A stretch of 32,476 nt of DNA from Candidatus Aerophobota bacterium (GCA_030602545.1 JAUVZN010000003.1:1-32476), one strand, 5' to 3'; numbered from the stretch's first letter, positions 8,274 through 32,476 are shown. A program made the numbers and translations. Notes: generated by a model from the sequence alone, not told the origin.

Positions 8274-8960
8274 ATGCAGTTTAAATTCCCAGAACCGCCA
8301 AGGCTCAATAGTCGTCCTAGTTTGAGTGAAGCTGTCTATGAGATGATCAAACAGAGGCTGCTCAGTCAGGAGCTGGAACCAGGCACCAAGCTCAGGGAGG
8401 AGGATTTAGCAGATCAGCTGGGGGTGAGTAGAACCCCGGTGAGAGAGGCCATAAACAAGTTGGAGCGGGAGGGATTGGTGGAGATCATTCCCCGCTATGG
8501 TACCTTCGTGGCCAATATCTCTTCCAAAGATGTGGAGGAAATTTACCAGATTAGAGAAGCTCTGGAGTGTCTCGCCATGAGATTAGCCCTGCCTCGATTC
8601 AGTAAGGATAAACTTCTAGAGCTGGCCCGTATTCATAAAGAGTGCAAAGTTCCTTTAGAGAAGGGGGACTTTGATCCCTTCATCAAAGTAGATACGGCCT
8701 TTCATGATCTTTTAGTAAAACTTTCAAAAAACAAGAGATTAATTCGTTTCATGAGTAATCTGAACAATCAGATAAGACTAGGAAGACTGGAGTCTTTCTC
8801 CGTACCGGGCCGAGCAAGAAAATCCCTTGCCGAACACCAGAGAATAATCGAGGCCATGCTGGAAGGGAATGCTGAGGAAGCAGAGAACCTGGTTAGACAG
8901 CACAGCCGAAACGTTAAAGATAATATACTCTATTTTCTGAAAATGAAAAAAAGAGACTAA
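8274..8960 (+). CDS. GntR family transcriptional regulator (FadR subfamily, FCD domain)
   Basis: wHTH LADQLGVSRTPVREAINKLEREGLV. FCD motifs D-TAFH and EHQRIIEAM...QH. Confidence 0.95.
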   Translation: MQFKFPEPPRLNSRPSLSEAVYEMIKQRLLSQELEPGTKLREEDLADQLGVSRTPVREAINKLEREGLVEIIPRYGTFVANISSKDVEEIYQIREALECLAMRLALPRFSKDKLLELARIHKECKVPLEKGDFDPFIKVDTAFHDLLVKLSKNKRLIRFMSNLNNQIRLGRLESFSVPGRARKSLAEHQRIIEAMLEGNAEEAENLVRQHSRNVKDNILYFLKMKKRD

Positions 8961-8982
8961 TTTTTGTAAAGGAGGTGTGATG

Positions 8983-10326
8983 ATGGTGAGGAAACTAAGC
9001 AAGGAGGAGCTTCTAGCCAAAGCTGAAGAGCCAAAAAAGTACGCTATGAAGTACCATCCCTTCTATCGTGGGAAAATCGGGGTGGAGCTTAAAGCTCCGG
9101 TAAGAGATTATAATGATTTTGCTATCTGGTACACTCCTGGCGTGGCTGAACCCTGTAAGGCCATCCATCAAGATACTTCAACTGTTTTTGAGTACACCAA
9201 TCGGGCAAATTTTGTGGCCATAGTTACTGATGGCACCAGAGTACTTGGTCTGGGTGATATTGGTCCAGAGGCTGCCCTACCGGTAATGGAGGGAAAGGGT
9301 ATGCTTTTTAAGTATCTGGGGGGTGTGGATGCTTTTCCCATATGCCTCGATACCAAAGATCCTGATGAGATAATCAGAGCCGTAAAATGGCTGGCTCCCA
9401 CCTTTGGGGGGATAAACCTGGAGGATATCGCCAAGCCCAAGTGTTTTTATATCCTGGATCAACTAGGAAAAGATCTGGATATTCCCGTGTGGCACGATGA
9501 TCAGCAGGGCACAGCCCTGGTTAATCTGGCGGGTTTAATGAGTGCTTTGAAGGTGGTGGGAAAGAGAATTGATGATATCTCCATAGCCTTTATAGGGGCA
9601 GGAGCGGCTAACATTAACTGCGTCAAATACATCATTCTGGCTGGAGCCGATCCAGATCGAATGATTATGGTGGACAGCAAGGGTATCCTCAATCCAGAAA
9701 GGACCGAACTCAAGGAAACCGAACCAACCAAGTGGGCACTTTGTGAGAAGACAAACAAAGAGGAGAGACGCGGCGGAATAAAGGAAGCTGTGAAGGGAGC
9801 CGATGTCTGCATCGCTCTTTCTCACTCAGGGCCGGGGGTCATTGAAAAAGAGTGGGTGGCTGACATGGCTGATGAGGCTATTCTTTTTGCCTGCGCCAAT
9901 CCTATCCCTGAGATATGGCCCTGGGAAGCAAGGGAGGCCGGAGTCAGGATTGTGGCTACCGGTCGTTCTGATTTCCCCAACCAGGTAAACAATTCTTTAG
10001 GTTTTCCCGCGGTTTTCAGAGGAGCTCTGGATGTAGGTGCTAAGATGATAACGGACGAGATGTGTATCACTGCCTCTCAGGCTATATCCGGGTATGCGGA
10101 AAAGAAAGGTCTTTCTGATGAATACATAATCCCTACTATGGGCGAGACAGAAATGTTTGTTGAGGAAGCGGTGGCGGTAGGATTGAAAGCCATAGAGCAG
10201 GGAGTGGCCAGAATGAAAAAGAGTGCTGAAGAGCTCAGAGAAAGCGCTTCCTCAGCCATAAAGATGGCTCAGGAAACGGTGAGGCTGCGGATGGATAAGG
10301 GGTTTATCCAGCCTCCTCCAAAGTAA
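8983..10326 (+). CDS. NAD(P)-dependent malic enzyme
   Basis: YTPGVAEPC, TDGTRVLGLGDIG, VMEGK, INLEDI, HDDQQGTA, GAGAA and TGRSDFPNQVNN. Start could be 8977, 8980 or 8983; 8983 has the best spacing from GGAGGT. Confidence 0.95.
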   Translation: MVRKLSKEELLAKAEEPKKYAMKYHPFYRGKIGVELKAPVRDYNDFAIWYTPGVAEPCKAIHQDTSTVFEYTNRANFVAIVTDGTRVLGLGDIGPEAALPVMEGKGMLFKYLGGVDAFPICLDTKDPDEIIRAVKWLAPTFGGINLEDIAKPKCFYILDQLGKDLDIPVWHDDQQGTALVNLAGLMSALKVVGKRIDDISIAFIGAGAANINCVKYIILAGADPDRMIMVDSKGILNPERTELKETEPTKWALCEKTNKEERRGGIKEAVKGADVCIALSHSGPGVIEKEWVADMADEAILFACANPIPEIWPWEAREAGVRIVATGRSDFPNQVNNSLGFPAVFRGALDVGAKMITDEMCITASQAISGYAEKKGLSDEYIIPTMGETEMFVEEAVAVGLKAIEQGVARMKKSAEELRESASSAIKMAQETVRLRMDKGFIQPPPK

Positions 10327-10371: not shown

Positions 10372-11217
10372 ATGAAACAAATTCATGTGGACAGCATTAT
10401 AGAGGTGGTTCGAAATATTTGTCAGGAGGCTAATTTCTATTTAGGGGATGATGTTCAGAGGGCCCTTGAAGAGTCCCTTAAGATAGAGGAATCACCCACG
10501 GGAAAGACCATCATAGAGCAAATTCTGGAAAATGCTGAGATTGCCCGCAAACACCGCGTCCCCATGTGTCAGGATACCGGCGCAGCCGTTTTTTTCGTGG
10601 AGCTAGGGCAGGAGGCTCAAGTAGTAGGGGGAGATTTTACTGAAGCTATAAATGAAGGAGTGCGTCAGGGATACAGGGAAGGGTATCTGCGTAAATCTAT
10701 GGTCAATGATCCCCTCATGGATCGAAAAAACACTCAGGACAATACTCCTGCCATTATTCATACCCGGGTAGTTCCTGGCGACAAATTAAAGATAACCTTT
10801 GCTCCCAAGGGTGGTGGGTCGGAGAATATGAGCGTTGTCAGGATGATGAAGCCTGCTGATGGGGTTGAGGGAGTAAGGGATTTTGTGGTGGACTGGGTAA
10901 AAAGATCTGGAGGAAATCCCTGCCCCCCTATTATTGTGGGAGTGGGCATTGGTGGAACTTTTGAGAAATGTGCTGAGCTTGCTAAAATATCCCTCCTCAG
11001 GGAGTTGGGCAGGCTTAATGCGGATCCTCGCTTTGCCTCTCTGGAGAAGCAGCTCAAAGAGGAGATAAATGATTTGGGGATTGGACCCATGGGATTGGGA
11101 GGAAGAGTAACTGCTCTGGCTGTTCACATAGAAACCCATCCCTGTCATATTGCTTCTCTTCCGGTAGCGGTGAATATTCAGTGCCATGCAGCAAGACATA
11201 AGAGCGTCACTCTTTAA
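10372..11217 (+). CDS. Class I Fe-S fumarate hydratase, alpha subunit (fumarase/tartrate dehydratase family)
   Basis: PMCQDTG, KGGGSEN, GNPCPP, GIGPMGLGG and CHIASLPVAVNIQCHA. Confidence 0.92.
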   Translation: MKQIHVDSIIEVVRNICQEANFYLGDDVQRALEESLKIEESPTGKTIIEQILENAEIARKHRVPMCQDTGAAVFFVELGQEAQVVGGDFTEAINEGVRQGYREGYLRKSMVNDPLMDRKNTQDNTPAIIHTRVVPGDKLKITFAPKGGGSENMSVVRMMKPADGVEGVRDFVVDWVKRSGGNPCPPIIVGVGIGGTFEKCAELAKISLLRELGRLNADPRFASLEKQLKEEINDLGIGPMGLGGRVTALAVHIETHPCHIASLPVAVNIQCHAARHKSVTL

Positions 11218-11262
11218 GTATATCAAAAAGTGAGGGGGATTCAGAGCAAAGGAGGTTCATTC

Positions 11263-11823
11263 ATGTCAAGGAAAGTTAGACTAAACACTCCCCTGAAGGA
11301 AGAAAAGGTAACCAGTCTCAGAGCTGGTGATGAAGTTCTTCTTAACGGCACCATTTATACGGGTAGAGACGCTGCCCACCAGAGACTGCTTGATTTATTG
11401 GAAAAGGGGAAGGAGCTACCCTTTGATGTAAAAGGACAAATCATCTACTATGTGGGTCCCTCTCCTGCCAAGCCCGGCACTCCTATAGGTTCCTGTGGTC
11501 CTACTACCAGCTATCGGATGGATTCTTACGCTCCTGCTTTGATGAAAATTGGACTCAAGGGAATGATTGGTAAAGGCCCTCGGGGGAAAGAAGTCGTAGA
11601 GGCCATGAAGAGATACAAGGCGGTTTATTTTGCTGCGGTGGGAGGTGCAGCCGCCCTTATAGCCAGATCGGTTAAGTCTTCCCGGATTGTAGCCTATGAA
11701 AATCTGGGAACGGAGGCTATCAGGGAGCTTGAAGTTGAGGATTTTCCGGTAATTGTGGCCAATGATGTCCTGGGAAACGACCTCTATGAGGAGGGAATAA
11801 GGAAATACAGTCGGAGGAAATAG
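11263..11823 (+). CDS. Class I Fe-S fumarate hydratase, beta subunit
   Basis: GRDAAH, GPTTSYRMD, MIGKG and GGAAAL. ATG at 11263 follows AAGGAGG. Confidence 0.92.
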   Translation: MSRKVRLNTPLKEEKVTSLRAGDEVLLNGTIYTGRDAAHQRLLDLLEKGKELPFDVKGQIIYYVGPSPAKPGTPIGSCGPTTSYRMDSYAPALMKIGLKGMIGKGPRGKEVVEAMKRYKAVYFAAVGGAAALIARSVKSSRIVAYENLGTEAIRELEVEDFPVIVANDVLGNDLYEEGIRKYSRRK

Positions 11824-11838
11824 TAAAAGGAGGTAGAA

Positions 11839-12267
11839 ATGGCCAAGGTGGAAGAATATGATATGCCTGATGAGCTTTACTACCACAAGGAGTTTATGTG
11901 GGTAAGGGTAGAAGGTGAGGAGGCAGTGGTTGGTTTAAATGATTTCTCCCAGAAGCTAGCCGGTGAGATAAGTTATATTGAAATGCCTGAAGAGGGAGAT
12001 GAGGTCAAGCAGGACGAAGCCATAGGCTCTTATGAAACGGGCAAGTGGTTGGGTAAACTCTATGCACCTGTCTCCGGAGAGGTAACGGCTATGAATGAAG
12101 AAGTTGAGGATGAGCCAACTCTGGTAAATAAGGATCCTTATGGAGAAGGGTGGCTTTTTAAAATAAAGATGGGTGACCCTGCCCAGCTCGATAATTTAAT
12201 GAAGGGAGAAGAAGCGATTGAGTGGTTAAGAGGAGAAATAGCCAAACACGCCAAGGAAAAAAAATAA
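11839..12267 (+). CDS. gcvH: Glycine cleavage H-like lipoyl carrier protein (LbpA-like)
   Basis: H-protein fold motifs YYHKEFMWVR, VGLNDFSQKLAGEI, APVSGEV and VNKDPYGEGW. The lipoyl-Lys is in ETGKW. Confidence 0.9.
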   Translation: MAKVEEYDMPDELYYHKEFMWVRVEGEEAVVGLNDFSQKLAGEISYIEMPEEGDEVKQDEAIGSYETGKWLGKLYAPVSGEVTAMNEEVEDEPTLVNKDPYGEGWLFKIKMGDPAQLDNLMKGEEAIEWLRGEIAKHAKEKK

Positions 12268-13316
12268 TGTATGTATTTAATCTGGATAAACTTTCTGGGC
12301 AGCAATCTATGCTTATCTTCCATCTTCTTGCACGAATGGGTGTAGAAGCTTTAGTATTAGTTTCTCCAAAAATTCCTCTGGCAAGTATAGGATATTTCCA
12401 GAATGCTGAGGAAGAAATGGATCTCCGATTTTGCAAAAAGACGAATATTCCTGTAATGAGGCGAGAGGTGGGAGGAGGGGCTACATATTTAGATGAAAAT
12501 CAGATATTTCATCAAGTAATCATAAAGAGAGATAATCCCATATTTTCCCGAAACATAAGTGAAAATTATGAGAGATTTTCTCTTCCAGTAATAGAGACTT
12601 ACAGAGAATTTGGAATTGAGACAGGTTTTCATCCTGTAAACGATATTCTTACTAAAGAGGGAAGAAAGATTGATGGTGAAGGAAGTGGAGATATTGGAGA
12701 TTGCTTTGTTTGGGTGGGAGGAATTCTCTTAGATTTTGATTACCAAGTGATGAGCAGAGTATTAAAAGTCCCTGAGGAAAAATTTAGAGATAAGATATAT
12801 AAAAGCATGAAAGAGAATTTAACTACGATGAAGAAGGAGCTGGGGGAGATTCCTTCACGGGAAGAAATTAAATCTGTTTTAATTGAAAAATTTGAAAAGA
12901 TTTTTGGAAAGCTTGAGCCAGCGAATCTTACTTCCACAATGATTAGAGGAATGGAGAAGCTTGAAAAAGAGTTTACTTCCCCGGCTTTTCTTCTTAAGAA
13001 AACGCCGAGAATCTCCAAGGGTGTAAAAATAAGGGAAGGAGTAGAGGTTATTTACGGAATCCATAAGGCAAAAGGTGGATTGATAAGAGCTGCTCAGGAA
13101 GTAGAAAAAGAGATAATAAATGAGATTAGTCTCTCCGGTGATTTCACATTTTATCCAAAAGATTATCTTGAAGGATTGGAGGGAAAACTTAAAGGAAATG
13201 TTCGGGAAAAAAGTCTGTTAAACTCTAAAATAGAGGAATTCTATGATAAGGAGAAAGTTCAATCTCCCGGTGTTGAATCGGAAGACTTTTTAAAGGCAAT
13301 GAAAGTGGAGGAATAG
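12267..13316 (+). CDS. lplA: Lipoate-protein ligase A family protein (catalytic plus C-terminal domain)
   Basis: RREVGGGATYLD, PVNDI, RKIDGEG and C-terminal KAKGGLIR...SGDF. The ATG overlaps the gcvH stop (TAATG). Confidence 0.9.
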   Translation: MYVFNLDKLSGQQSMLIFHLLARMGVEALVLVSPKIPLASIGYFQNAEEEMDLRFCKKTNIPVMRREVGGGATYLDENQIFHQVIIKRDNPIFSRNISENYERFSLPVIETYREFGIETGFHPVNDILTKEGRKIDGEGSGDIGDCFVWVGGILLDFDYQVMSRVLKVPEEKFRDKIYKSMKENLTTMKKELGEIPSREEIKSVLIEKFEKIFGKLEPANLTSTMIRGMEKLEKEFTSPAFLLKKTPRISKGVKIREGVEVIYGIHKAKGGLIRAAQEVEKEIINEISLSGDFTFYPKDYLEGLEGKLKGNVREKSLLNSKIEEFYDKEKVQSPGVESEDFLKAMKVEE

Positions 13317-13318
13317 AA

Positions 13319-13726
13319 ATGAGGACGGAAATTTCTATTAAGAACACCAAAAGTAAGTTCTTAGGTAAGGTAGAAGAGTTGAGTGGAGAGAGCATTTACG
13401 CTTGTTATCAGTGCGGGAAATGTTCTGCAGGTTGTCCCAGTATATCAGAGATGGATATATCTCCCAGTGAGATCATCCGCCTGGTTCAACTAGGTGAGGA
13501 AAAAGAGGTTTTAAATTCTAAAACAATCTGGATTTGCGCTTCCTGTTTTACCTGTGTTACCCGTTGTCCTAAAGGGGTAGATTTAGCAAAAATTATGGAA
13601 TCTCTCAGGCAGATTAATCTGAGGAAAAATGTTGATTATGTTAGTCCTTTATCTATTCCCAAGGAGATACTTTCTCAAGTTCCTCAAATAGCTTTAGTTA
13701 GCAGTCTTCGTAAATTCAGTGCTTGA
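13319..13726 (+). CDS. hdrC: Heterodisulfide reductase subunit C-like (short, 2x[4Fe-4S])
   Basis: CYQCGKCSAGCP and IWICASCFTCVTRCP; adjacent to hdrB. Confidence 0.88.
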   Translation: MRTEISIKNTKSKFLGKVEELSGESIYACYQCGKCSAGCPSISEMDISPSEIIRLVQLGEEKEVLNSKTIWICASCFTCVTRCPKGVDLAKIMESLRQINLRKNVDYVSPLSIPKEILSQVPQIALVSSLRKFSA

Positions 13727-13748
13727 TAATATTATGAAAGAGGCAAAG

Positions 13749-14636
13749 GTGAAGATTTCTTATTTTCCAGGATGTACCCTAAAGACGATGGCAAAAGATT
13801 TTGAAGATTCAGCCTTAGCTTCTGCATCTTGTTTAGGTATAGAGCTGGTGGAACTTCCTCGATGGAACTGTTGTGGAACAGTCTATTCTTTAACTTCTGA
13901 TGACTTAATCCATCAAGTGGCTCCTATTCGTAATCTTATTCGGGTTAAAGAACAGGAAGATAACCGGGTGGTGACTCTCTGTTCTATGTGTTATCATACT
14001 TTAAAGAGAGCAAATAAATTAGTAAGAGAAGATAGAGAGAAACTGGATAAGCTTAATAATCTTATGTACAGAGAAGATGTGAAATATGATGGAGAAATTG
14101 AAGTTTTACATCTTTTGGAGATTTTAAAAAATGAGGTAAGTTTTAATCAGATTGCCAAGAAGGTAAAGATACCTCTTAAAGAACTAAAGGTAGCTCCTTA
14201 TTATGGTTGCCTGCTCCTGCGCCCTCCAGAGATAGGGTTAGATGATGCTGAAAATCCCACTATTTTAAAGGATTTTCTGGAATCTATTGGGGCAGAAGTG
14301 ATTGATTATCCCTATCAAACAGAATGTTGTGCTTCCTATCATACTGTGGTAAATGTAGATTTGGTTGTTGAACGGGCTCACGATATTTTGAGCTCAGCTA
14401 TTAATCAGGGAGCAGAAGCAATTGTTTTAAGTTGTCCCTTATGCGGATTTAATTTGGATAATCGACAAAAAGAGATAAAAGAGAAGTTTTCAGACTTTAA
14501 AGGTATACCGGTATTCTATTTTACTCAACTTTTGGCTCTTTCTTTAGGGCTTGATGAGAAGGTTTGTGGATTTGAATTGAATTTTGTGGACCCTCGCCAT
14601 TTGTTAAAAAGTAAACATTTAACAGGTAGAGTATAA
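13749..14636 (+). CDS. hdrB: Heterodisulfide reductase subunit B-like (two CCG domains)
   Basis: YFPGC, WNCCG, CSMC, YYGC, ECCA and CPLC. Start is uncertain (13734 ATG or 13749 GTG). Confidence 0.92.
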   Translation: MKISYFPGCTLKTMAKDFEDSALASASCLGIELVELPRWNCCGTVYSLTSDDLIHQVAPIRNLIRVKEQEDNRVVTLCSMCYHTLKRANKLVREDREKLDKLNNLMYREDVKYDGEIEVLHLLEILKNEVSFNQIAKKVKIPLKELKVAPYYGCLLLRPPEIGLDDAENPTILKDFLESIGAEVIDYPYQTECCASYHTVVNVDLVVERAHDILSSAINQGAEAIVLSCPLCGFNLDNRQKEIKEKFSDFKGIPVFYFTQLLALSLGLDEKVCGFELNFVDPRHLLKSKHLTGRV

Positions 14637-14637
14637 A

Positions 14638-16593
14638 ATGAGTAGAATAGGTGTTTTTGTTTGTCACTGTGGTTTAAATATTGCAGGTACAGTAGATGTA
14701 GAAAAAGCAGCCAGGCTTATGAGTAATTACCCGGGTGTTATATATGCTAGTGATTATGTATATATGTGTTCCGATCCCGGTCAAGATATGATAAAAGAGG
14801 TGGTCAAAGAGAAAAAGCTTGATGGTATAGTGGTAGCTGCTTGCTCACCCACAATGCACGAGATCACCTTTCGTAATACAGTAGCTTCCATAGGACTAAA
14901 TCCTTATAGATGTGAGATTGCCAATATAAGAGAACAATGTAGCTGGGTGCACCAAGATAATAAAGAGATAGCTACGGAAAAAGCAGTACAGATTATTGAG
15001 GCTACTGTAGAAAAATTGAAGTTAGACAAATCTCTCGTTCCTCTAAGTATTCCCATTACTAAAAAAGCCCTGGTCATCGGAGGAGGAATAGCTGGTATTC
15101 AAGCTTCTTTAGATATTGCTGATAGTGGATATGAGGTTGTTTTAGTAGAGAAGAATCAGTCGATTGGGGGACACATGCTTCAACTTTCAGAAACTTTTCC
15201 TACCCTCGATTGCCCTCAATGTATTGCTACTCCAAGGATGGTCCAGGTAGGTCAGCATCCAAAGATAAAACTTCTTGCCTATTCGGAGGTGGAAGAAGTC
15301 TCCGGTTATGTGGGGAATTTCAAAGTAAAAATTAGGAGAAAAGTTTCTTTTGTTGATTGGGATAAATGCACGGGTTGCGGTCTCTGTATAGAAAAATGTC
15401 CGGTAAAGGTTCTTTCGGAATTTGATGAGTTTTTAGCTAAAAGGAAAGCTATTTACACTCTATTTCCCCAGGCTGTTCCTAATAAACCTGTGATTGATAG
15501 TAATAATTGCCTTTATTTCACTAAAGGAAAATGTAGGGCCTGTGAGAAGAATTGCTCAGTAAAAGCTATCAATTTTGAACAAAAAGACTCTTTCATTGAA
15601 GAGGATGTAGGGGCAATCATTGTAGCCACGGGTTATGATCTTATGGATAAAGCAGAAATTGGTGAATATGGATATGGAAAATATGAGGATGTGATAGATG
15701 GTTTACAGGCAGAAAGAGTCCTTGCTCCTGCTGGTCCTACCAATGGTATACCTTATAGACCCTCCGATGGTAAGATTCCTAAAGAAGTGGTGTTTATTCA
15801 ATGTGTAGGTTCACGAGACCCGGAGCATTATTATCCATATTGTTCAAAGGTATGTTGTATGTATACTATTAAACAGGCTATGCTTTATAAACACGCTGTT
15901 CCTGATGGTCAGGCTTATGTATTTTATATGGATATTCGGTGCAACGGAAAGGGATATGAGGAATTTCTTCAGAGAGGAATAGAAGAAGACAGGATTCTTT
16001 ATATAAGAGGTAGGGTTTCCAAAGTATTTAAGGATGGAGATAAAATCGAAGTTTGGGGAGCGGATACACTTACGGGAAGGAAGATTGAAATTTCGGCGGA
16101 TATGGTTGTTCTGGCTATGGCTATGGTTCCCAGCCAAGGGGTAAAGAAATTAGCTGAGAAATTGAGACTGGCTACAGATGAGTATGGTTTCTTAACAGAA
16201 GCTCATCCTAAGCTTCGTCCGGTTGAAAGTCTTACTGCCGGCTGTTTTCTTGCTGGAGCTGCTCAGGCACCAAAAGATATTCCTGAAGCTGTGGCTCAGG
16301 CATCCGGGGCGGCAAGTAAGGTGCTCAGTCTTTTTTCTCAAGATGTATTTTACCACGAGCCGATTATAGGCAGTGTTGATGAGGAAGTCTGTGTAGGATG
16401 TGGCAACTGTGTAAATATTTGTGCTTATGATGCCGTTGAACTTGATTTAGTAACCAAGGTAGCCAAGGTTAATCCAGCTCTTTGTGAAGGGTGCGGTGCC
16501 TGTAGTGCTGCCTGTCCTTCGGGAGCAATGCAACAGAACAATTTTGGCAAAAGGCAGATATTTGAAATGGTAGATGCTTTTACTAAAGGTTAA
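14638..16593 (+). CDS. hdrA: Heterodisulfide reductase subunit A (canonical length)
   Basis: RIGVFVCHCG, NIREQCSWVH, GGGIAG, TFPTLDC, inserted ferredoxin, QCVGSRD...CSKVCCMYTIK, EAHPKLRPV and C-terminal 2x[4Fe-4S]. Confidence 0.95.
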   Translation: MSRIGVFVCHCGLNIAGTVDVEKAARLMSNYPGVIYASDYVYMCSDPGQDMIKEVVKEKKLDGIVVAACSPTMHEITFRNTVASIGLNPYRCEIANIREQCSWVHQDNKEIATEKAVQIIEATVEKLKLDKSLVPLSIPITKKALVIGGGIAGIQASLDIADSGYEVVLVEKNQSIGGHMLQLSETFPTLDCPQCIATPRMVQVGQHPKIKLLAYSEVEEVSGYVGNFKVKIRRKVSFVDWDKCTGCGLCIEKCPVKVLSEFDEFLAKRKAIYTLFPQAVPNKPVIDSNNCLYFTKGKCRACEKNCSVKAINFEQKDSFIEEDVGAIIVATGYDLMDKAEIGEYGYGKYEDVIDGLQAERVLAPAGPTNGIPYRPSDGKIPKEVVFIQCVGSRDPEHYYPYCSKVCCMYTIKQAMLYKHAVPDGQAYVFYMDIRCNGKGYEEFLQRGIEEDRILYIRGRVSKVFKDGDKIEVWGADTLTGRKIEISADMVVLAMAMVPSQGVKKLAEKLRLATDEYGFLTEAHPKLRPVESLTAGCFLAGAAQAPKDIPEAVAQASGAASKVLSLFSQDVFYHEPIIGSVDEEVCVGCGNCVNICAYDAVELDLVTKVAKVNPALCEGCGACSAACPSGAMQQNNFGKRQIFEMVDAFTKG

Positions 16594-25232: not shown

Positions 25233-25757
25233 ATGAGTGAAAATGAAGAAAAGATTATCAAGGTAAATGAATTAAACCCCAATTTTAAATATGAGATTCA
25301 AGCGCAACCCGGAGGCGAGAATATTACTCGCTGCTTTGCCTGTGGCACCTGCAGCGCTGCCTGTCCTGTGAGAGAGGTAAACGAGAAGTATAATCCCCGA
25401 AAGATTATTAGAATGGCTTTATTGGGAATGAAAGAGAGGGTTCTTTCCAGCGATTTTATCTGGCTCTGTTCCAGCTGTTATACCTGCTATGAGAGATGTC
25501 CCCAGGATGTAAGAATTACAGAACTGATGAATGCTATGAAAAATATAGCTGTAAAAGAAGGATATATTCATCCATCTTTTGTAGCTCAAATGGAGGCTTT
25601 AAACTCTCATGGGAGACTTTATGAAATGGGGGAGTTCGATAATAAAAAGCGAGTAAAGGTTGGTCTTCCTCCCATAGAGGAAACTGCCGAGGATACCAAA
25701 AAATTATTTAAACAGGAAGGTGTGGATAAACTTATTGAGTTTAAGGAGGGAGGATAA
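25233..25757 (+). CDS. hdrC: Heterodisulfide reductase subunit C (second copy)
   Basis: CFACGTCSAACP, NPRKIIR and IWLCSSCYTCYERCP. ATG at 25233 follows GGAGG. Confidence 0.92.
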   Translation: MSENEEKIIKVNELNPNFKYEIQAQPGGENITRCFACGTCSAACPVREVNEKYNPRKIIRMALLGMKERVLSSDFIWLCSSCYTCYERCPQDVRITELMNAMKNIAVKEGYIHPSFVAQMEALNSHGRLYEMGEFDNKKRVKVGLPPIEETAEDTKKLFKQEGVDKLIEFKEGG

Positions 25758-26629
25758 TGAAATACGCTTTATTTTTGGGATGTACTGTTCCGGTGAGGGC
25801 TTTAAATTATGAAGTTTCTGCAAGGAAAGTAGCCCATAAGCTAAATATAGAGTTTGTAGATATAAATGATTTTAGCTGTTGTGGTTTTCCTGTAAAATCG
25901 GTGGATAGAGATACTTTTCTTTTAATGGCCGCTAAAAATTTAAGTTTGGCGGAAGAGAAGGGTTTGGATATATGTTCTCTTTGTAGTGCCTGCACTTCCG
26001 TTTTAACAGAAGCAAATAAAGAGCTAAAAGAAGATGAAGATTTACGGAAAGGGATAAATAAGGAGCTTTCAGTTTTAGGGAGAAAATATGAGGGAAGGAT
26101 AAAAGTAAAACATTTTGCCCGAATTTTATATGAGGATGTGGGTCTGGATAAGATAAGGGAGAATTTAAGGGTTGATTTGTCTAAATTTAGCTTTGCTGCT
26201 CACTATGGCTGCCATTACTTAAAACCTTCAGAAATATACGAGGGTTTTGATGACCCCGAAAATCCAAAAACTCTGGATGAGTTAATTGAGCTGACAGGAG
26301 CAAAATCTATTCCTTATGAAGATAAAAAGGGGTGTTGTGGTGGGGGAATTTTGGGTATAGATGAAATGACAGCTCTGAAAGTAGCTAAGACTAAGCTTGA
26401 CCATGTAAAATCTGCTGGAGCAGATGCTGTCTGCTTGATTTGCCCTTTTTGTAGTATTATGTATGAAGGAAGTCAAAAAAAGATGGAGAGGGAATTTGAG
26501 GCAGAGTATAATCTACCCGTTTTATATTATCCTCAAATTCTTGGTCTTGCTCTGGGAATTCCTCAAGATGAGTTAGGGTTCCGCATGAACCGGGTTAAAC
26601 CTCGGGAAATTATCGCTCAATTGAGCTAG
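25757..26629 (+). CDS. hdrB: Heterodisulfide reductase subunit B (second copy)
   Basis: FLGC, SCCG, CSAC, HYGCH, CCGGG and CPFC. TAATG coupling to hdrC. Confidence 0.93.
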   Translation: MKYALFLGCTVPVRALNYEVSARKVAHKLNIEFVDINDFSCCGFPVKSVDRDTFLLMAAKNLSLAEEKGLDICSLCSACTSVLTEANKELKEDEDLRKGINKELSVLGRKYEGRIKVKHFARILYEDVGLDKIRENLRVDLSKFSFAAHYGCHYLKPSEIYEGFDDPENPKTLDELIELTGAKSIPYEDKKGCCGGGILGIDEMTALKVAKTKLDHVKSAGADAVCLICPFCSIMYEGSQKKMEREFEAEYNLPVLYYPQILGLALGIPQDELGFRMNRVKPREIIAQLS

Positions 26630-26758: not shown

Positions 26759-28027
26759 ATGAAGGAAATAGAGTTTCCCAGTATGGCAGGCATCCGGCAG
26801 AAACTCGAGGCTCCGAGATTAGAGAATATTGCTCACGAGCTAAGAGAGGGGATGGTCAGATCCAGACTTAAGGAAAGAGTAAAACCTAATGATGAGGTGG
26901 CGGTAACCGCTGGCAGTAGAGGTATAGCCAATATTGTCCAGATCACTGCCACCATAGTAGAGGAGTTGAAGAAACTGGGAGCTCGCCCCTTCATAGTCCC
27001 CGCCATGGGATCACATGGAGGAGCCACCGCTGAAGGACAGATCGAGATCCTGGCTGGTTATGGCATTACTGAGGATTCGGTTGGAGTGCCTATTCGCTCT
27101 TCCATGGAGGTGGTAAAGATAGGAGAGATAAAGGATCAGGTTCCTGTGTTCATGGATAAGATAGCCCTAAGGAGCGATGCTATTGTTGTGGTTAATCGCA
27201 TTAAGCCCCACACTTCTTTCAGAGGTCCATTTGAGTCGGGTCTGATGAAAATGTTGGCCATTGGTTTGGGAAAACATGAAGGAGCCTCTTTGGTGCACTC
27301 TTTCGGATCCAGGGGCTTAAGAGAAATGGTTCCAGAGGCAGCCAGAGTTATGATGAGTAAAGCTAATTTTGTCCTGGGGGTTGGTATACTGGAAAATGCT
27401 TATGATGAGACAGCCAGAATTGTGGTTCTTGATCCAGAGGATTTTGAAAAAGAGGAGCCACACCTGTTGGAGGAAGCCCGCCGGCTTATGCCCCGTCTTC
27501 CTTTCGATGAGATAGATATCCTCATTGTGGATGAGTTAGGCAAAAATATCAGCGGCACGGGTATGGATACCAATATTATTGGTCGCCTCCTGATAAGAGG
27601 AGAGAAGGAATTTGAGAAGCCCAATATCAACAAGATCATCGTTCTTGATGTAACTCCTGCCTCTCATGGGAATACTTTAGGGGTGGGACTGGCTGATATT
27701 ACCACCAGAAGGCTGGTGAACAAAATTGACTATCACGCTATGTACACCAATGCCTTAACCGCGGGGTTTCTTAACCGTGTCTTTGTTCCATTGACCTGTG
27801 AGACAGACAAAGAAGCCATAACCACAGCCATAAGCACTTTTAAGAGAAAAGATCCCCAAAGCCTCAAGGTGATGAGGATAAAGAATACTCTGAAAATAGA
27901 GAAATTGTATATTTCGGAGCCTCTACTTGAGGAGGCCCGAGCAAGGGATGATATCCAGATCCTTGGTGAGATAGAACCTATGAAATTTGACTCCCAGGGC
28001 AACCTGGCGGGAGGAGACTATGCTTAA
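26759..28027 (+). CDS. Lactate racemase (LarA N-terminal/DUF2088) domain protein
   Basis: AVTAGSRGIANI, PAMGSHGGATAEGQ, NRIKPHT, SGLMKMLAIGLGKH and GKNISGTGMD are recognisable motifs of this family. Confidence 0.75.
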   Translation: MKEIEFPSMAGIRQKLEAPRLENIAHELREGMVRSRLKERVKPNDEVAVTAGSRGIANIVQITATIVEELKKLGARPFIVPAMGSHGGATAEGQIEILAGYGITEDSVGVPIRSSMEVVKIGEIKDQVPVFMDKIALRSDAIVVVNRIKPHTSFRGPFESGLMKMLAIGLGKHEGASLVHSFGSRGLREMVPEAARVMMSKANFVLGVGILENAYDETARIVVLDPEDFEKEEPHLLEEARRLMPRLPFDEIDILIVDELGKNISGTGMDTNIIGRLLIRGEKEFEKPNINKIIVLDVTPASHGNTLGVGLADITTRRLVNKIDYHAMYTNALTAGFLNRVFVPLTCETDKEAITTAISTFKRKDPQSLKVMRIKNTLKIEKLYISEPLLEEARARDDIQILGEIEPMKFDSQGNLAGGDYA

Positions 28028-29444
28028 ACAACTGCGTGCTATCGTAGGAGAGGAGAATGTCTCCGATGATTTGGCGGATCGGTATATCTATGGCTCAGAT
28101 GCCTCTATTCATCAAAGCTCTCCTTCAGTGGTGGTAAGGCCAGGGAGCATAAAGGAAATTCAGGAAATCTTAAGATTTGCTAACAGAGAGAAGATTCCTG
28201 TAGTGCCCAGAGGTGCGGGGACGGGAGAGTCGGGAAGCGCTGTTCCCCTGGATGGAGGAATTGTCCTGGATCTTAAACGTATGGACAAAATACTGGAAAT
28301 TCGACCCCAAGATATGTTCTGTCGGGTGGAGCCCGGCGTCATCAACGATGAGCTGAATCGTGAGCTGAAACCCTACGGGTTTTTCTTCCCTCCCACACCT
28401 GCAAGTGGAAAAGTGTGTACCATAGGAGGGATGATTGCCAACAATGCCTCGGGAATGAGAGCTATCAAGTACGGAGCCACCCGGGATGCCGTTTTAGGGC
28501 TAAAGGTGGTTTTGGCCAACGGGGACCTGGTGAGGATGGGAACCAGCACTATCATTCAAGCTTCGGGTTATCAACTGGAAAGATTGATGGTGGGAAGTGA
28601 AGGTACCCTGGGAGTTATGGTGGAGGCCACCCTGCGTCTGAAGCCGCTGCCCGAAGAAAGAGCAGTGGGTAGGGCTCTATTCTATGAGCTGAGTCAGGCA
28701 GGAGATGCTGTCTCCAAGATAATTACTGAGGGAATCGTCCCCTCGGCCTTGGAACTGATGGATGAGGTAGCCATTAAGTCAGTTAATAAGGCTCTTAAGG
28801 CTGGTCTTCCTGAAGTAGAGGCGCTGATTTTATTTGAGTGCGACGGAATTAAAGCTAGTTTCAATCATGAAATACAGAAGATAAAGAAAATATGTGAGGA
28901 TTGCGGAGCTTTTGACATCATCATTAGTGATAATCCAGAGGAGATGGAGAAGCTCTGGGAGGTAAGATCTTCCATTTTCCCCGCCACCAGTATGTACAAG
29001 GAGGATCGGATTCGGGCAACTTTAGCCGAGGATATCACCGTTCCTGTCTCCAGGCTCCCAGAGTTAGTAGAAGGGATTCACCGGATTGCCAGGGAAAACG
29101 GCATCATCATCGGAACTTATGGGCATGCGGGTGAGGGGCTTATTCACACTGCTTTTCTGGTTAATCCCCGAGTGAGCGATGAGTGGGATAGAACCCGCAA
29201 GGCTGTGGATGAGGTCTTCGCTCTGGTGCAGCACCTGGGGGGAACCACCTCCGGGGAACACGGCATAGGAATTTCCAAAGCCCCGTATTTTAAGAAGGAG
29301 AGGAAGGAGCTTCTGGAGCTTATGAGGGGAATCAAGAAGGTCTTTGATCCCCATAACATTCTCAATCCTCATAAACTCATGGATGCTCCGGAAGATTTCT
29401 TCACCGCTACCAAACTCAGATATCCAGTCAAGGAGAGGAGATGA
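28020..29444 (+). CDS. FAD-linked 2-hydroxyacid dehydrogenase, GlcD/D-lactate dehydrogenase family
   Basis: PRGAGTG, TIGGMIANNASG, GSEGTLG, GHAGEGLIH and SGEHGIG...LNP. ATG at 28020 follows GGAGGAG. Confidence 0.9.
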   Translation: MLKQLRAIVGEENVSDDLADRYIYGSDASIHQSSPSVVVRPGSIKEIQEILRFANREKIPVVPRGAGTGESGSAVPLDGGIVLDLKRMDKILEIRPQDMFCRVEPGVINDELNRELKPYGFFFPPTPASGKVCTIGGMIANNASGMRAIKYGATRDAVLGLKVVLANGDLVRMGTSTIIQASGYQLERLMVGSEGTLGVMVEATLRLKPLPEERAVGRALFYELSQAGDAVSKIITEGIVPSALELMDEVAIKSVNKALKAGLPEVEALILFECDGIKASFNHEIQKIKKICEDCGAFDIIISDNPEEMEKLWEVRSSIFPATSMYKEDRIRATLAEDITVPVSRLPELVEGIHRIARENGIIIGTYGHAGEGLIHTAFLVNPRVSDEWDRTRKAVDEVFALVQHLGGTTSGEHGIGISKAPYFKKERKELLELMRGIKKVFDPHNILNPHKLMDAPEDFFTATKLRYPVKERR

Positions 29445-30526
29445 AGACCAAAGCGCTCGAGAGTTGGGAAAAAGATATACTTCGCTGTATCAGGTGTGCC
29501 TACTGTTTTGTAGATTGTCCTGTTCTTAAGGAACTGGGGTGGGAGTCGGCGGGAGCAAGATCCAAAATTATCCTCTCCTACGGCCTCAAAGAAGGTGAAA
29601 TCGAGCCTAATCAGCTCATTAAGGACAGGCTATTCCAGTGCTGTCTTTGTGCTCAGTGTGAGATAAATTGCCCGGCCAAGGTTAAGGTAGCGAGTGTGGT
29701 CAGGGCAGCCAGACGGGATTTGGTAGAAGCAGGGCATTATTTTGAAGCTCATCGAATGATGAAGGAGATGATAAAGAAAACCGGTAATCTGTATGGAGAA
29801 GAAAGAAAGGATTTCCATTATCCCAAGCTTGGTGCGGAGTTTGCTTTGTTTGTGGGCTGTGTGGGCAAATACCGGGAAGAGGAAAGTCTTAAGAGGACTC
29901 TAGAACTTCTCAAGGAACTAGGAGTTTCTTTTACTACTATTGAGGAAGTCTGCTGTGGGGGAGTATTTGGCGATGTGGGTTTTGAGGCAAGCCAGGAGGA
30001 TGCTGAGCATATCAAGGAGGAAATAAAGAAAACCAAAGCTAAAAAGCTTCTAACTACCTGCCCTATGTGTTACCGCACCTTTAAGGAGGATCCGCGATTC
30101 AAGGATCTGGGAGTCGAGGTTCTCCATATTACCCAGCTCCTGGAGAAGTTGGAGTTTCCCGTGAAGACAGAGCGGATAGTAACCTATCATGATCCCTGCG
30201 ATTTGGGAAGACACAGCGATCTCTACCAGGTACCGAGAAATGTCATCAGGAAGTTTGCCCCTAACTTTCAAGAAATGGTCAAGAATCGTGAAAATGCCCA
30301 TTGCTGCGGTGCAGGGGGTGGGGTAAGGGGATCTTTTACCCGACTTTCTATCAATATGGCTAAAAAGAGACTCCAGGAAGCTATAGACACGGGAGCAGAA
30401 GTTCTTCTCACCGAGTGCGCTTCCTGCCTTCATAATTTCAAGAACGCCAAAAAAAGGAAACAGAAAATTGAAATCTACAATATTTCCGAGTTCCTTTCCC
30501 TGCTTATGGATGGAGAGGTAAAATGA
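29441..30526 (+). CDS. GlcF/HdrD-like Fe-S oxidoreductase (2x[4Fe-4S] plus two CCG domains)
   Basis: CIRCAYCFVDCP, CCLCAQCEINCP, FVGC, VCCGG, CPMC, YHDPC, CCGAGGG and CASC. ATGA overlap with the upstream gene. Confidence 0.88.
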   Translation: MKTKALESWEKDILRCIRCAYCFVDCPVLKELGWESAGARSKIILSYGLKEGEIEPNQLIKDRLFQCCLCAQCEINCPAKVKVASVVRAARRDLVEAGHYFEAHRMMKEMIKKTGNLYGEERKDFHYPKLGAEFALFVGCVGKYREEESLKRTLELLKELGVSFTTIEEVCCGGVFGDVGFEASQEDAEHIKEEIKKTKAKKLLTTCPMCYRTFKEDPRFKDLGVEVLHITQLLEKLEFPVKTERIVTYHDPCDLGRHSDLYQVPRNVIRKFAPNFQEMVKNRENAHCCGAGGGVRGSFTRLSINMAKKRLQEAIDTGAEVLLTECASCLHNFKNAKKRKQKIEIYNISEFLSLLMDGEVK

Positions 30527-31656
30527 AGATCTATGAGTATCAGGCCCATGAGATTTTTTCCTCCCATGGCATCCCTACTCCCCCAATGGAAGTGGCGGAC
30601 AGTGCCGAGAAAGCCGAAGAGATAGCTAAAAGATTCGGCAGACCCGTGGCAGTCAAAGCCCAAGTCCTGGTGGGAGGAAGAGGGAAGGCTGGAGGAATCA
30701 AGATAGCCCGGGATCCCGACCAGGCTCATGAGACCGCCAGTAGGATTCTCTCCTCATCCCTTAAGGGCGAGCCGGTAAGGGAGGTTCTTATCCAGGAAGC
30801 TCTCCAGATAAAAGAGGAGTACTATCTGGGGATTACCGTGGATCGCTCCGAGAGAAAACCTGTGGTAATGGTTTCCCCGGCCGGAGGAGTAGAGATAGAA
30901 GAAGTAGCCAGGCTCAGTCCCCAAAAGATCTTCAAGCAGCACATCCACCCCTTGCTTGGTTTCCAGAACTACCAGGCGCTCTCACTCGCCTTTTCTCTGG
31001 GTGAGAGCAAAGAAAGAGCCAGGAGCATGGCCAAGATCCTGAGCAGCCTCTACCGCATATTTGAGGAAGTGGACTCTTCTTTAGTCGAGATCAATCCTCT
31101 TGTTATAACTCAAGACGACCAATTATATGCCCTGGATGCCAAAATCATCATAGATGATAATGCTCTTTATCGTCATCCTGAGCTATCCTCCCTTGGAAGC
31201 ACCCAAGTCGGGGATCCCCTGGAAGTAAAGGCGAAAGAGCAGGGTTTAAGTTATGTGCATCTGGATGGCGAAATCGGATGCATAGTTAACGGAGCAGGAT
31301 TGGCCATGGCAACTATGGATCTGGTTAAACGATACGGAGCTGAGCCGGCAAATTTTCTGGATGTGGGAGGGGGAGCTAGCAAAGAGAGGGTAAGCTCAGC
31401 TCTGGATATTGTTTGCTCTGAGGAGAAAGTAAAGGTGGTTCTGGTGAACATATTTGGAGGTATCACTCGGTGTGATGTGGTGGCTGATGGGCTCATAGAA
31501 GCCATCTCCCGGATGAGGCGAGATCTTCCTTTGGTTATCAGACTCTCCGGTACCAATGAAGAAGAGGGTCGGACGAAACTTTGCCAGACCAGGGCTATTT
31601 TAGCCACCACCATGGATGAAGCAGCCAGAATAGCGGTTAGAGAGGTAAAGAAGTGA
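30523..31656 (+). CDS. sucC: Succinyl-CoA synthetase beta subunit
   Basis: [58 protein letters not shown] and GTN. Confidence 0.95.
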
Positions 31657-32476
31657 GCATATTGGTTGATTCTGACAGTAGGGTACTGGTTCAGGGAATA
31701 ACCGGCAGGGAGGGAAGCTTCCATGCTGCCAGGATGAGAGAATACGGAACCAATATTGTTGGCGGTGTTACCCCGGGAAGAGAAGGGGAGAAAGTAGATG
31801 GGATCCCTGTTTACAATACAGTCAAGAAGGCTTGCCAGGAAACTTCAGCTAACGCCTCGGTGATTTATGTTCCTCATCAGTTTGCTCCTGATGCTATCCT
31901 TGAAGCCGTAGATGCGGGAATTGAACTCATTGTCTGTATCAGCGAAGGAATCCCCACTCTGGATATGATTAAGGTTTGCTCTTATGTTAGCCTCAAGGGC
32001 TCACGGCTCATTGGGCCCAACTGTCCAGGAGTCATATCCCCAGGTAAGGCAAAGGTTGGCATTATGCCGGGAGCCATTCATAAGCCAGGCTCGGTGGGAG
32101 TGATATCAAGAAGCGGCACCCTTACCTATGAAGTGGTGTATAATCTAACCATCAGTAATCTTGGTCAATCGAGCTGTGTAGGTATTGGAGGTGATCCCAT
32201 CATTGGGTCTTCCTTTATCGACATTCTCTCTCTTTTTGAAGAGGACCAGGAGACCAAAGCCATTGTTCTCATTGGTGAGATCGGAGGAAGGGATGAGGAG
32301 GAAGCGGCCCTGTTTATCAGGGACAAAATTACTAAACCGGTAGTGGCCTTAGTTGCGGGAAAAACTGCTCCTCCTGGCAAGCGTATGGGACACGCAGGTG
32401 CTATCATATCCGGAGGAGAAGGAACGGCCCAGGAGAAAATAAAAGCGTTCAAGAGGGCTTCTGTCCCTGTAGCTGA
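31653..32476 (+). CDS. sucD: Succinyl-CoA synthetase alpha subunit (partial, 3' end outside window)
   Basis: Not in the ORF track. GTG at 31653 overlaps the sucC stop. Reads [24 protein letters not shown]...GPNCPG...SRSGTLTYE...GIGGD...MGHAGA (phospho-His) and stays open to the window edge. Confidence 0.95.

Follow-up and report, generated by a model that had tools for sequence, protein, structure and literature searches.

A contig of 32,476 nt from the genome of Candidatus Aerophobota bacterium (GCA_030602545.1 JAUVZN010000003.1:1-32476), referred to here over its whole length as the window, carries a run of 21 open reading frames (ORFs), all on the plus strand from position 8274 to the contig end, which probably specifies a soluble, fumarate-reducing system built on heterodisulfide reductase (Hdr) modules, ferredoxin generation included. 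Judged by its gene content, the locus is a bacterial, HdrL-type variant of the Hdr-coupled soluble fumarate reductases (Frd) that have been proposed in print, with the addition of a dedicated lipoyl carrier of the GcvH type and a lipoate-protein ligase. The best combined explanation, in which an Hdr-built, fumarate-reducing branch would use lipoylated GcvH as its Hdr partner, is advanced tentatively, at a little less than an even chance. An initial annotation of this DNA had described a C4-dicarboxylate pathway wired to Hdr through a lipoyl carrier; its soluble, Hdr-wired fumarate reductase is borne out by the present analysis, in which the carrier-ligase pair also proves to be an extra one, whereas the expected co-conservation of that pair with hdr and frd genes and the reverse, succinate-oxidizing arm are not. 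The run lies on a 32.5-kb contig (C72) of a genome bin of 1.15 Mb, which comprises 111 contigs and is 87% complete, so that a gene not found in it may still be present in the organism.

The candidate fumarate reductase is encoded by two consecutive genes:
16692-17453, plus strand: FrdB-like iron-sulfur (FeS) subunit with a 2Fe-2S and a two-[4Fe-4S] ferredoxin domain and 14 Cys (Pfam Fer2_4 and Fer4 dicluster families)
17468-19132, plus strand: FrdA-like flavoprotein of 554 amino acids (aa; FAD_binding_2, 205 bits, residues 99-482 only)

Among NCBIfam models, the FrdA-like protein matches TfrA best (NF004900; 294.6 bits, short of the cut-off of 718). An alignment to Escherichia coli FrdA (residues 96-512) shows conservation of the His of HPT, the Arg of RDK, the His of HY and the Arg of NRL (H232, R287, H355, and R390 in E. 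coli numbering) and an Asn in place of the His that binds FAD covalently (His44). The catalytic His/Arg set and this Asn are invariant in 24/24 aligned family members. In the FrdA family, non-covalent FAD goes along with fumarate reduction and a loss of succinate oxidation, as in His44 variants of E. coli FrdA, thiol:fumarate reductase (Tfr) and flavocytochrome c3. Consequently, the FrdA-like protein is read as a fumarate reductase, a direction that appears fairly likely, and the succinate-oxidizing arm of the initial annotation is disfavored. In such an oxidative scheme, FrdBA would be a soluble succinate dehydrogenase linked to Hdr-type confurcation (with reduced ferredoxin or a dithiol), which would feed malate and pyruvate without reverse electron transport at the membrane. 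Besides the Asn, it is opposed by the search for methylmalonyl-CoA mutase, which would yield succinyl-CoA from propionate: the 87%-complete genome gave no match to MM_CoA_mutase, and the methylmalonyl-CoA (propionate) pathway was for this reason dropped as the principal reading. The scheme is thus considered improbable, even though succinyl-CoA synthetase (SucCD), fumarase and malic enzyme are reversible, so that a route from succinyl-CoA to pyruvate fits equally well, and even though the accessible text of one study considers succinate oxidation for an SdhA-Hdr-GcvH cluster of Culexarchaeia (Kohtz et al., 2022; PMC9723716).

In its domain architecture, the FrdA-like protein departs from the usual pattern at both ends. 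The Pfam search returned no match to Succ_DH_flav_C (PF02910), a domain that is carried by two stand-alone paralogues in the same genome (contigs C47 and C42). The C47 flavoprotein (FAD_binding_2 plus Succ_DH_flav_C; L214 of genome G000) is located beside a sugar-type ABC transporter and another pair of GlcD and CCG proteins. Residues 1-95 (window 17468-17752) match no Pfam family but form an N-terminal extension that is conserved across the FrdA family, with invariant residues including Y10, T24, R25, R28, and H49-P50-D51; this extension could conceivably act as a docking element in place of the absent C-terminal domain. The FrdB-like subunit shows only weak similarity to SdhB (22 bits, a single SdhB chain) and is closer to an 8Fe ferredoxin that carries a 2Fe-2S head. 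An assignment of the FrdA-like protein as L-aspartate oxidase was also entertained, as it scores 189-257 bits against NadB models. L-aspartate oxidases carry a conserved Glu at the position of the Phe in the "RFGG" motif of FrdA, and the FrdA-like protein has a Gly there; together with the fixed FeS partner and the neighboring fumarase and SucCD genes, this renders the assignment unlikely.

All of these components appear to be soluble, as had been anticipated. A crude hydropathy scan with a 19-residue window found no membrane-protein pattern among the 21 proteins of the run, in which one segment in the ligase and two in HdrL coincide with dinucleotide-fold positions, and correctly retrieved the upstream permeases LivH (eight segments) and LivM (five segments) as positive controls. 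No transmembrane protein is thus available in the run as an anchor for FrdBA, and a match to Sdh_cyt (PF01127), the family in which sdhCD would be sought, was not found in the 87%-complete genome either.

The genomic link between this type of fumarate reductase and Hdr modules extends well beyond the window. With one genome scanned for each species, 218 FrdA relatives were retrieved, the best 80 of which (64-93% identical) were analyzed; 50 of these 80 loci had at least 6 kb of upstream DNA and were regarded as informative. The relatives span Aerophobetes, Aminicenantes, WOR-3, TA06, Bathyarchaeia, Thermoplasmata and others, and such identities across many candidate phyla and archaea point to lateral spread under strong constraint. 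FrdB is encoded directly upstream of FrdA in 76/80 loci, and the four exceptions have no upstream DNA. A HdrA/HdrL-like gene was found within 8 kb of FrdBA in 36 of the 50 informative loci and a HdrB-like gene within 3.5 kb upstream in 18 of them. A frequent core is HdrA(-MvhD)-HdrC-HdrB-FrdB-FrdA, which in L024 is preceded by two 2-oxoacid:ferredoxin oxidoreductases. The suggestion that a soluble fumarate reductase is tied to Hdr modules is upheld by this pattern, and functional coupling of the two is considered likely. In two WOR-3 loci, L051 (11666-14516) and L058, gcvT-gcvH-gcvPA genes follow frdB-frdA on the same strand after 7 bases and no Hdr gene is nearby; this adjacency may reflect chance or a link of FrdBA to an ordinary H protein.

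In the window, FrdBA is flanked by Hdr modules on both sides:
13319-13726, plus strand: HdrC1 (NCBIfam HdrC, 76 bits, below the cut-off of 160)
13719-14636, plus strand: HdrB1 (NCBIfam HdrB, 182 bits, below the cut-off of 345)
14638-16593, plus strand: HdrA, 651 aa (HdrA2, 790 bits against a cut-off of 1100; model positions 1-642 of 777)
19177-23634, plus strand: HdrL, 1485 aa, HdrA-like with an inserted GltD/NfnB-like NAD(P)-binding module (HdrA2, 1008 bits in five stretches)
23667-24092, plus strand: MvhD (Pfam FlpD, 180 bits)
24095-25231, plus strand: FrhB/FdhB-like FeS protein (FrhB_FdhB_C, 41 bits; Fer4 families)
25203-25757, plus strand: HdrC2 (NCBIfam HdrC, 120 bits, below the cut-off of 160)
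25757-26629, plus strand: HdrB2 (NCBIfam HdrB, 297 bits, below the cut-off of 345)

The insert of HdrL (residues 158-665) exceeds the cut-off of an NAD(P)-binding protein model (NF009410; 552 bits, cut-off 516), and HdrL has Pfam matches to Fer4_20 and Pyr_redox_2. Direct reading of HdrB1 shows that both of its C..CC..CxxC (CCG) motifs are complete, and an alignment of the HdrB2 family (A2, 17 sequences) has invariant Cys columns at C41, C42, C76, C79, C152, C193, C194, and C229. It could be argued that HdrB1, together with HdrC1, is a CCG "anchor" comparable to SdhE, which would tie FrdBA to the membrane and to quinone by analogy with type E succinate:quinone oxidoreductases. Indeed, HdrB1 reaches 170.6 bits on the model of SdhE (NF042965, MFR anchor; HdrB2, 143.8 bits), close to its 182 bits on HdrB. 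Both values remain far under the SdhE cut-off of 500, HdrC and a complete HdrA are encoded in the same unit, the solved structures most similar to HdrB1 are those of soluble methanogen HdrB chains (138-153 bits), and the hydropathy scan offered no amphipathic or transmembrane candidate. We therefore regard the analogy as very improbable and retain the assignment of HdrB1 to a soluble Hdr unit.

Elsewhere in the genome, CCG genes occur in two places only outside the window contig. Contig C69 (G000; L216, 309-9735) encodes the alpha, beta and gamma subunits of a 2-oxoacid:ferredoxin oxidoreductase followed by a second HdrL (1527 aa, 58% identical), MvhD and a FrhB-like protein, after which a 245-aa ORF runs off the contig end; this second set beside a ferredoxin-dependent enzyme fits a ferredoxin link. 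Searches of the 87%-complete genome for DsrC and ComA (PF02679) gave no match, in agreement with the supposition that the established thiol partners, DsrC and coenzymes M and B (CoM/CoB), are not at hand.

A potential substitute is encoded directly upstream of hdrC1:
11839-12267, plus strand: second GcvH-type lipoyl carrier, 142 aa, without Cys (Pfam GCV_H, 136 bits)
12267-13316, plus strand: dedicated LplA-type lipoate-protein ligase (Pfam LplA-B_cat, 117 bits; Lip_prot_lig_C, 28 bits)

The carrier keeps the lipoyl Lys in the motif E-T-G-K-W; this Lys is invariant in 13/13 GcvH relatives and is followed by Trp in the linked copies. Translation of lplA likely starts at ATG 12267, one base of which is shared with the gcvH stop codon, and orthologues begin with MY(L/V)FNL. 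The ligase remains below all NCBIfam ligase cut-offs, and its catalytic domain is N-terminal, as in the domain order of the E. coli enzyme. The genome encodes a gcvT-H-PA-PB operon of the glycine cleavage system (GCS) with its own GcvH on contig C74, as well as two other LplA/LipB-type genes, LipA and one E2; therefore, the pair in the window is additional. The window GcvH is separated from gcvT/gcvP, which are located on C74, and is 40% identical to the GcvH encoded there. In a maximum-likelihood tree, 18 LplA/Hdr-linked copies, the window GcvH among them, and 14 copies from GCS operons are parted by one branch with 100/100 support.

The genomic context of related ligases likewise suggests a dedicated function. 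A metagenome scan with the ligase alignment retrieved 147 relatives, 80 loci of which were kept, and the ORFs within 6 kb were clustered. The most common neighbors were HdrC-like (25 loci), HdrB-like (23), HdrD-like proteins with Fer4 and two CCG domains (21), HdrA/HdrL (20) and GcvH (12), followed by a NarI/DsrM-like membrane protein (10), NiFe hydrogenase subunits (8 and 7) and a Lpd-like flavoprotein (5); the HdrC2B2 type is the commonest neighbor, and GlcD with a CCG protein is also recurrent. Within 6 kb, a CCG protein was present in 21/26 clade loci flanked on each side by at least 2.5 kb (13/18 after dereplication at 85% ligase identity) as opposed to 0/20 control loci of housekeeping LplA/LipB-type genes; since the control loci came from related genomes, the loci are non-independent and the groups were set by context before being compared, these counts show an association and not a probability. 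GcvH was present in 10 of the same 26 loci. Taken with the separate GCS operon, this association supports the view of carrier and ligase as a dedicated, extra pair, and it appears to be undescribed in the literature searched. In L140, L127, and L177, the ligase clade and GcvH occur with a HdrD/DsrK-like Fer4+2xCCG protein and a NarI/DsrM-like membrane protein, an arrangement that would correspond to a HdrDE/DsrMK-like membrane module with a lipoyl carrier alongside. Large clusters in L167, L185, L187, L188, and L192 hold HdrL copies, two HdrCB pairs, small and large NiFe hydrogenase subunits and a maturation protease, as well as MvhD, GlcD, a CCG protein, the ligase and AsrA/HydG-like flavoproteins, and have no FrdBA.

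A lipoyl protein next to hdr genes may also bring to mind the sulfur-oxidizing sHdr systems, in which case lipoylated GcvH would handle sulfane sulfur for the Hdr modules in the manner of LbpA and the C4 enzymes would be present for redox balance only. With a lipoyl protein and a ligase alongside, the order hdrC1-B1-A...hdrC2-B2 is reminiscent of shdr clusters. In addition, a related genome (G009) carries an orthologous pair (GcvH 72%, LplA 58% identical) that adjoins AsrA/HydB- and HydG-like NAD(P)H FeS flavoproteins, a YeeE-type sulfur transporter and a rhodanese. Several features of the window do not conform to such a role: DsrE, TusA, and rhodanese are not among its Pfam matches, HdrA is of the long methanogen type (651 aa, covering HdrA2 positions 1-642) and not a short sHdrA, and the ligase reaches 85.5 bits on the LplAB model (NF053751), whose cut-off is 550. 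Moreover, the recurrent neighbors of the ligase clade are HdrL, MvhD, NiFe hydrogenase and GlcD instead of sulfur trafficking genes, and the AsrA/HydB- plus HydG-like flavoprotein pair recurs within large Hdr clusters that contain the ligase. On balance, a sulfur role is unlikely to a marked degree, and a redox function of the carrier is preferred. In G009, a DDE transposase gene (L107, 11757-13022) adjoins the cluster of GcvH, ligase, NAD(P)H flavoproteins, YeeE and rhodanese.

In the proposed mechanism, a cytoplasmic branch without membrane anchor, consisting of malic enzyme, class I fumarase, FrdBA with non-covalent FAD and succinyl-CoA synthetase, would be built into Hdr-type bifurcation machinery. 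Fumarate would serve as the exergonic electron sink, allowing the flavins of HdrA and HdrL to push a second electron to ferredoxin. Electrons from NAD(P)H would enter via the GltD-like insert of HdrL and via MvhD, those from 2-hydroxyacids via a trio of LarA-like, GlcD and HdrD-like proteins. HdrB1, HdrB2, and the HdrD-like subunit would provide three CCG disulfide/dithiol sites, and their partner in this lineage would be the extra GcvH, charged with lipoate by its own ligase. HdrC1B1 and FrdBA may associate into a split Tfr-like (thiol:fumarate-reductase-like) unit that uses a protein-bound dithiol. The midpoint potentials are approximately -290 mV for lipoamide, +30 mV for fumarate, -320 mV for NAD(P)H and -400 to -500 mV for ferredoxin, so that the energy for reducing ferredoxin can come from the fumarate-linked step alone; bifurcation, if any, would thus be expected at the HdrA next to FrdBA, with a dithiol or NAD(P)H as donor. 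Lipoylated GcvH is proposed as this dithiol because of the full Cys set of HdrB1, the invariant Cys of the HdrB2 family, the third CCG site and the failure to find DsrC and ComA in the genome bin. That it is a substrate of a CCG site is, in our estimation, an evenly balanced proposition. A broader generalization is possible but doubtful: the distinct GcvH paralogue with its own LplA clade might be a general protein-bound "heterodisulfide" of Hdr-like and HdrD/DsrK-like complexes in anaerobic bacteria and archaea that have neither CoM/CoB nor DsrC, which in this locus would act as a shared dithiol pool joining the NAD(P)H-linked HdrL complex and the 2-hydroxyacid dehydrogenase to a fumarate reductase that bifurcates to fumarate and ferredoxin.

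Several observations weigh against the combined explanation, most of them against its carrier component. The pair gcvH-lplA was found in 2/50 informative FrdBA loci and lies directly upstream of hdrC1 only in the closest relatives of the window, including three metagenome contigs (L114-L116); among the 31 species genomes of the phylum, five have the ligase clade and three the full arrangement. The related genomes G005 and G014 possess the same cluster with gaps of ~100 and 47 bases between fumB and hdrC1, which leave no room for the pair, and neither genome (84 and 78% complete) contains a match to the ligase clade at E<=1e-30; therefore, the Hdr-Frd core works without a dedicated carrier. Nothing in the GcvH sequence by itself marks it as special: it passes the ordinary gcvH equivalog cut-off (TIGR00527; 128.1 bits, cut-off 115.85), and the solved structures closest to it are those of ordinary H proteins. 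Given a lipoamide potential of about -290 mV, it would be uphill to reduce the carrier with a 2-hydroxyacid or, in a bifurcating reaction, with NAD(P)H; driving force exists for the fumarate-linked step alone. As to the coupling itself, no HdrA/HdrL-like gene lies within 8 kb of FrdBA in 14 of the 50 informative loci, the neighborhood counts include related sequences and not independent events, and in L057 (WOR-3/Stahlbacteria-type) FrdBA is located amid peptidase and glutamate dehydrogenase genes. Thirteen further loci with a GcvH near FrdBA were rejected as instances of co-conservation, since these copies belong to gcvT-H-PA-PB operons and are 45-57% identical to the housekeeping GcvH as compared to 37-45% to the window GcvH. 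The co-conservation of carrier and ligase with hdr-frd that the initial annotation had expected, and whose absence it had named as grounds for rejection, is consequently missing from most loci; the pair is nonetheless additional in its genome and associated with CCG proteins across its clade. Relatives without the pair suggest that the carrier is an add-on that improves coupling, or that these relatives use a single GcvH or another thiol.

Alternatively, Hdr and Frd could be wired directly, with electrons passing from HdrL/MvhD to the HdrA flavin and from there to ferredoxin and through an FeS chain to FrdBA; gcvH-lplA would then be a recent insertion with an auxiliary or unrelated role, for instance in salvaging lipoate or as a spare H protein. 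The clusters without the pair and the inconspicuous GcvH sequence are readily explained by such an arrangement, and the accessible parts of the published Flx-Hdr-Frd proposals require no lipoyl carrier (PMC6315080, PMC7282089, PMC13147460). The mosaic composition of the cluster points in the same direction. In G005, the Hdr genes are 86-93% identical to those of the window, whereas FrdBA reaches just 55-57%; in L115, gcvH-lplA is combined with this second, G005-like FrdBA type, and the closest FrdBA (93% identity) was found in another family of the same order. The G+C content of the core from gcvH to hdrB2 (window 12000-26000) is 37-41%, as compared to 44-49% in the flanks and 45.5% in the genome, which places the hdr-frd core 4-8 points below its flanks. 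Dip and mosaic identities together look like cassette exchange inside the cluster. The direct wiring is less easily reconciled with the complete noncubane motifs of HdrB1 and the eight invariant Cys of the HdrB2 family, which imply a disulfide substrate, and the ligase-CCG association (21/26 vs. 0/20) is hard to square with a chance insertion. Furthermore, a GCS GcvH and other ligases are already present in the genome. This alternative is accordingly judged rather unlikely, and lipoyl-GcvH as a partner of the Hdr modules is retained in the combined explanation.

Individual elements of the locus resemble several known systems. TfrAB of Methanothermobacter, which reduces fumarate with CoM-SH and CoB-SH, is likewise soluble and anchorless, with non-covalent FAD and a CCG thiol site that is FeS-wired to the flavoprotein; TfrA is the top NCBIfam match of the FrdA-like protein, and the TfrB model is matched piecewise by the FrdB-like protein, HdrC1, HdrB1, and the HdrD-like protein. 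The locus departs from TfrAB in scoring far below the Tfr cut-offs (294.6 vs. 718; <=162 vs. 385), in distributing the FeS and CCG parts over different genes, in the N-terminal extension (95 aa) and missing C-terminal domain of its FrdA, and in the addition of HdrA and HdrL; no ComA was found in the genome bin. Hydrogenobacter thermophilus reportedly possesses a soluble, five-subunit, NADH-dependent FrdAB with Hdr-like and GltD-like subunits, a finding attributed to Miura et al. in 2008; this enzyme is similar in its soluble FrdAB with Hdr- and GltD-like parts and is said to differ in having neither a HdrA-type bifurcating flavoprotein nor a lipoyl carrier.

Hdr coupling of a soluble AB-type fumarate reductase has already been proposed in print. 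According to the accessible text of the respective papers, reductive TCA cycle clusters of a tubeworm symbiont (Ca. Endoriftia) and of Thioflavicoccus contain tfrAB within flxABCD-hdrABC (PMC6315080), the "succinate operon" of Pseudoclostridium thermosuccinogenes combines an AB-type fumarate reductase with Flx-Hdr and is ~4-fold upregulated under CO2 limitation (PMC7282089), and a 2026 survey lists Flx-Hdr with AB-type fumarate reductase and also cites co-expression (PMC13147460). NADH-driven bifurcation to fumarate and ferredoxin is put forward in the same sources (PMC6315080, PMC7282089, PMC13147460). As far as these published descriptions go, the window is alike in uniting fumarase, an Hdr complex and a two-gene fumarate reductase in one cluster; it differs in that HdrL, MvhD and a FrhB-like protein replace FlxABC, with only the MvhD/FlxD-type part present, and in its two HdrCB pairs and its GcvH with ligase. 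The idea of GcvH as a carrier for HdrB is in print as well. The Ehe cluster of Culexarchaeia comprises a NiFe hydrogenase-HdrBC module with SdhA, CdhA, HdrA2B2C2, and GcvH, and it was suggested, as a genome-based speculation, that GcvH may carry a disulfide for HdrB (Kohtz et al., 2022; PMC9723716). The trio of SdhA-type flavoprotein, Hdr and GcvH is shared with the window, whereas the Ehe cluster comes from archaea and is connected with a membrane hydrogenase, and the accessible text mentions no ligase, fumarase, malic enzyme, SucCD or HdrL (PMC9723716). The sHdr-LbpA system, in the portion of the report that could be consulted, has a dedicated GcvH-fold lipoyl protein and a ligase with hdrC1B1A...hdrC2B2-type genes beside ordinary lipoylation (Cao et al., 2018). 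By that description, a dedicated lipoyl protein and ligase next to hdr genes, in addition to housekeeping lipoylation, are common to both, and the window differs in its long HdrA, its ligase that fails the LplAB model, its context of fumarate, NAD(P)H and hydroxyacid enzymes, and the lack of sulfur-trafficking genes. A review of the field names fumarate reductase only among its references (Buckel and Thauer, 2018). In a search that left most subscription journals and supplements outside, no paper was found that combines lipoyl carrier, ligase, Hdr and fumarate reductase, nor any biochemical characterization of an Hdr-coupled soluble fumarate reductase or of the GcvH-HdrB idea. The initial statement that no characterized system shows this combination thus holds for characterized systems, but both key ideas already exist as genomic proposals, as far as the accessible texts show (PMC6315080, PMC7282089, PMC13147460, PMC9723716).

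The substrate of HdrB in the Hdr-type complexes of bacteria and non-methanogenic archaea (Flx-Hdr, HdrL) is a long-standing question. DsrC fills this place in sulfate reducers only, and CoM/CoB do so in methanogens only. The locus and the pattern of its ligase clade name a clonable candidate partner, i.e., a lipoylated GcvH paralogue. At the same time, the run is a compact and fully soluble gene set that bears on whether fumarate reduction drives ferredoxin reduction; if true, this would change ATP-yield estimates for sediment fermenters and users of the reductive TCA cycle. Near-identical DNA is found in runs from marine sediment, vents, groundwater and cold seeps.

The remaining enzymes of the run belong to the carbon route and to a 2-hydroxyacid module:
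8977-10326, plus strand: malic enzyme, short form, 449 aa (Pfam malic, 107 bits; Malic_M, 79 bits)
10372-11823, plus strand: class I fumarase, alpha 10372-11217 and beta 11230-11823 (Pfam Fumerase, 401 bits; Fumerase_C, 215 bits)
26759-28027, plus strand: nickel-pincer-cofactor (LarA-type) isomerase, group 22 (NCBIfam NF052515, 563 bits, cut-off 400)
27987-29444, plus strand: GlcD-type FAD-linked 2-hydroxyacid oxidase (Pfam FAD_binding_4 and FAD-oxidase_C; glcD, 422 bits, below the cut-off of 568)
29441-30526, plus strand: HdrD-like subunit with Fer4 and two CCG domains (Pfam CCG and Fer4_8; TfrB, 162 bits, below the cut-off of 385)
30523-31656, plus strand: SucC, succinyl-CoA synthetase beta (NCBIfam ADP-forming succinate-CoA ligase beta, 501.6 bits, cut-off 370)
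31653-32474, plus strand: SucD, succinyl-CoA synthetase alpha, open at the contig end (Pfam CoA_binding and Ligase_CoA)

The malic enzyme does not reach the cut-off of the NCBIfam NADP-dependent malic enzyme (334 bits, cut-off 1178). The HdrD-like protein, which had been annotated as GlcF-like, obtains its best score from the FeS/CCG region at the C-terminus of TfrB (162 bits). Within 8 kb of FrdBA, 13/80 loci contain genes for fumarase, malic enzyme or SucCD, a recurrence that supports the initial interpretation of the carbon enzymes as one route with the fumarate reductase.

The organization of the run agrees with its description as co-oriented and tightly spaced. According to Pfam and NCBIfam, its first half consists of a GntR/FCD regulator, malic enzyme, fumarase alpha and beta, GcvH, LplA-type ligase, HdrC1, HdrB1, HdrA, FrdB-like and FrdA-like proteins and its second half of HdrL, MvhD, FrhB/FdhB-like protein, HdrC2, HdrB2, LarA-type isomerase, GlcD, HdrD-like protein, SucC, and SucD. 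With the lplA start set at ATG 12267, the intergenic gaps in run order are 16, 45, 12, 15, -1, 2, -8, 1, 98, 14, 44, 32, 2, -29, -1, 129, -41, -4, -4, and -4 bases; overlaps are counted at 9/20 gene junctions, and the widest gap is 129 bases. Independent contigs from public sequencing runs span the critical junctions (run X4, 10548-15908 and 15910-18965; run X1, 15960-19300) and bridge fumA-hdrA and hdrA-frdA, indicating that the arrangement is real DNA and no assembly artefact. At least half of the sampled words are present in 20 public runs from eight studies, covering marine sediment, vent, groundwater and cold seep. A scan of the window against Rfam gave no match at gathering thresholds.

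The first gene of the run encodes its putative regulator:
8274-8960, plus strand: GntR/FCD-family transcription regulator (Pfam GntR, 84 bits; FCD, 108 bits)

Upstream of the run, the window contains a Liv-type branched-chain amino-acid ABC transporter (1743-6414). The opposite strand of this upstream region encodes an SDR-family protein (6650-7459), an IclR regulator (441-1208) and a fragment of an Asp/Glu racemase (1-453).

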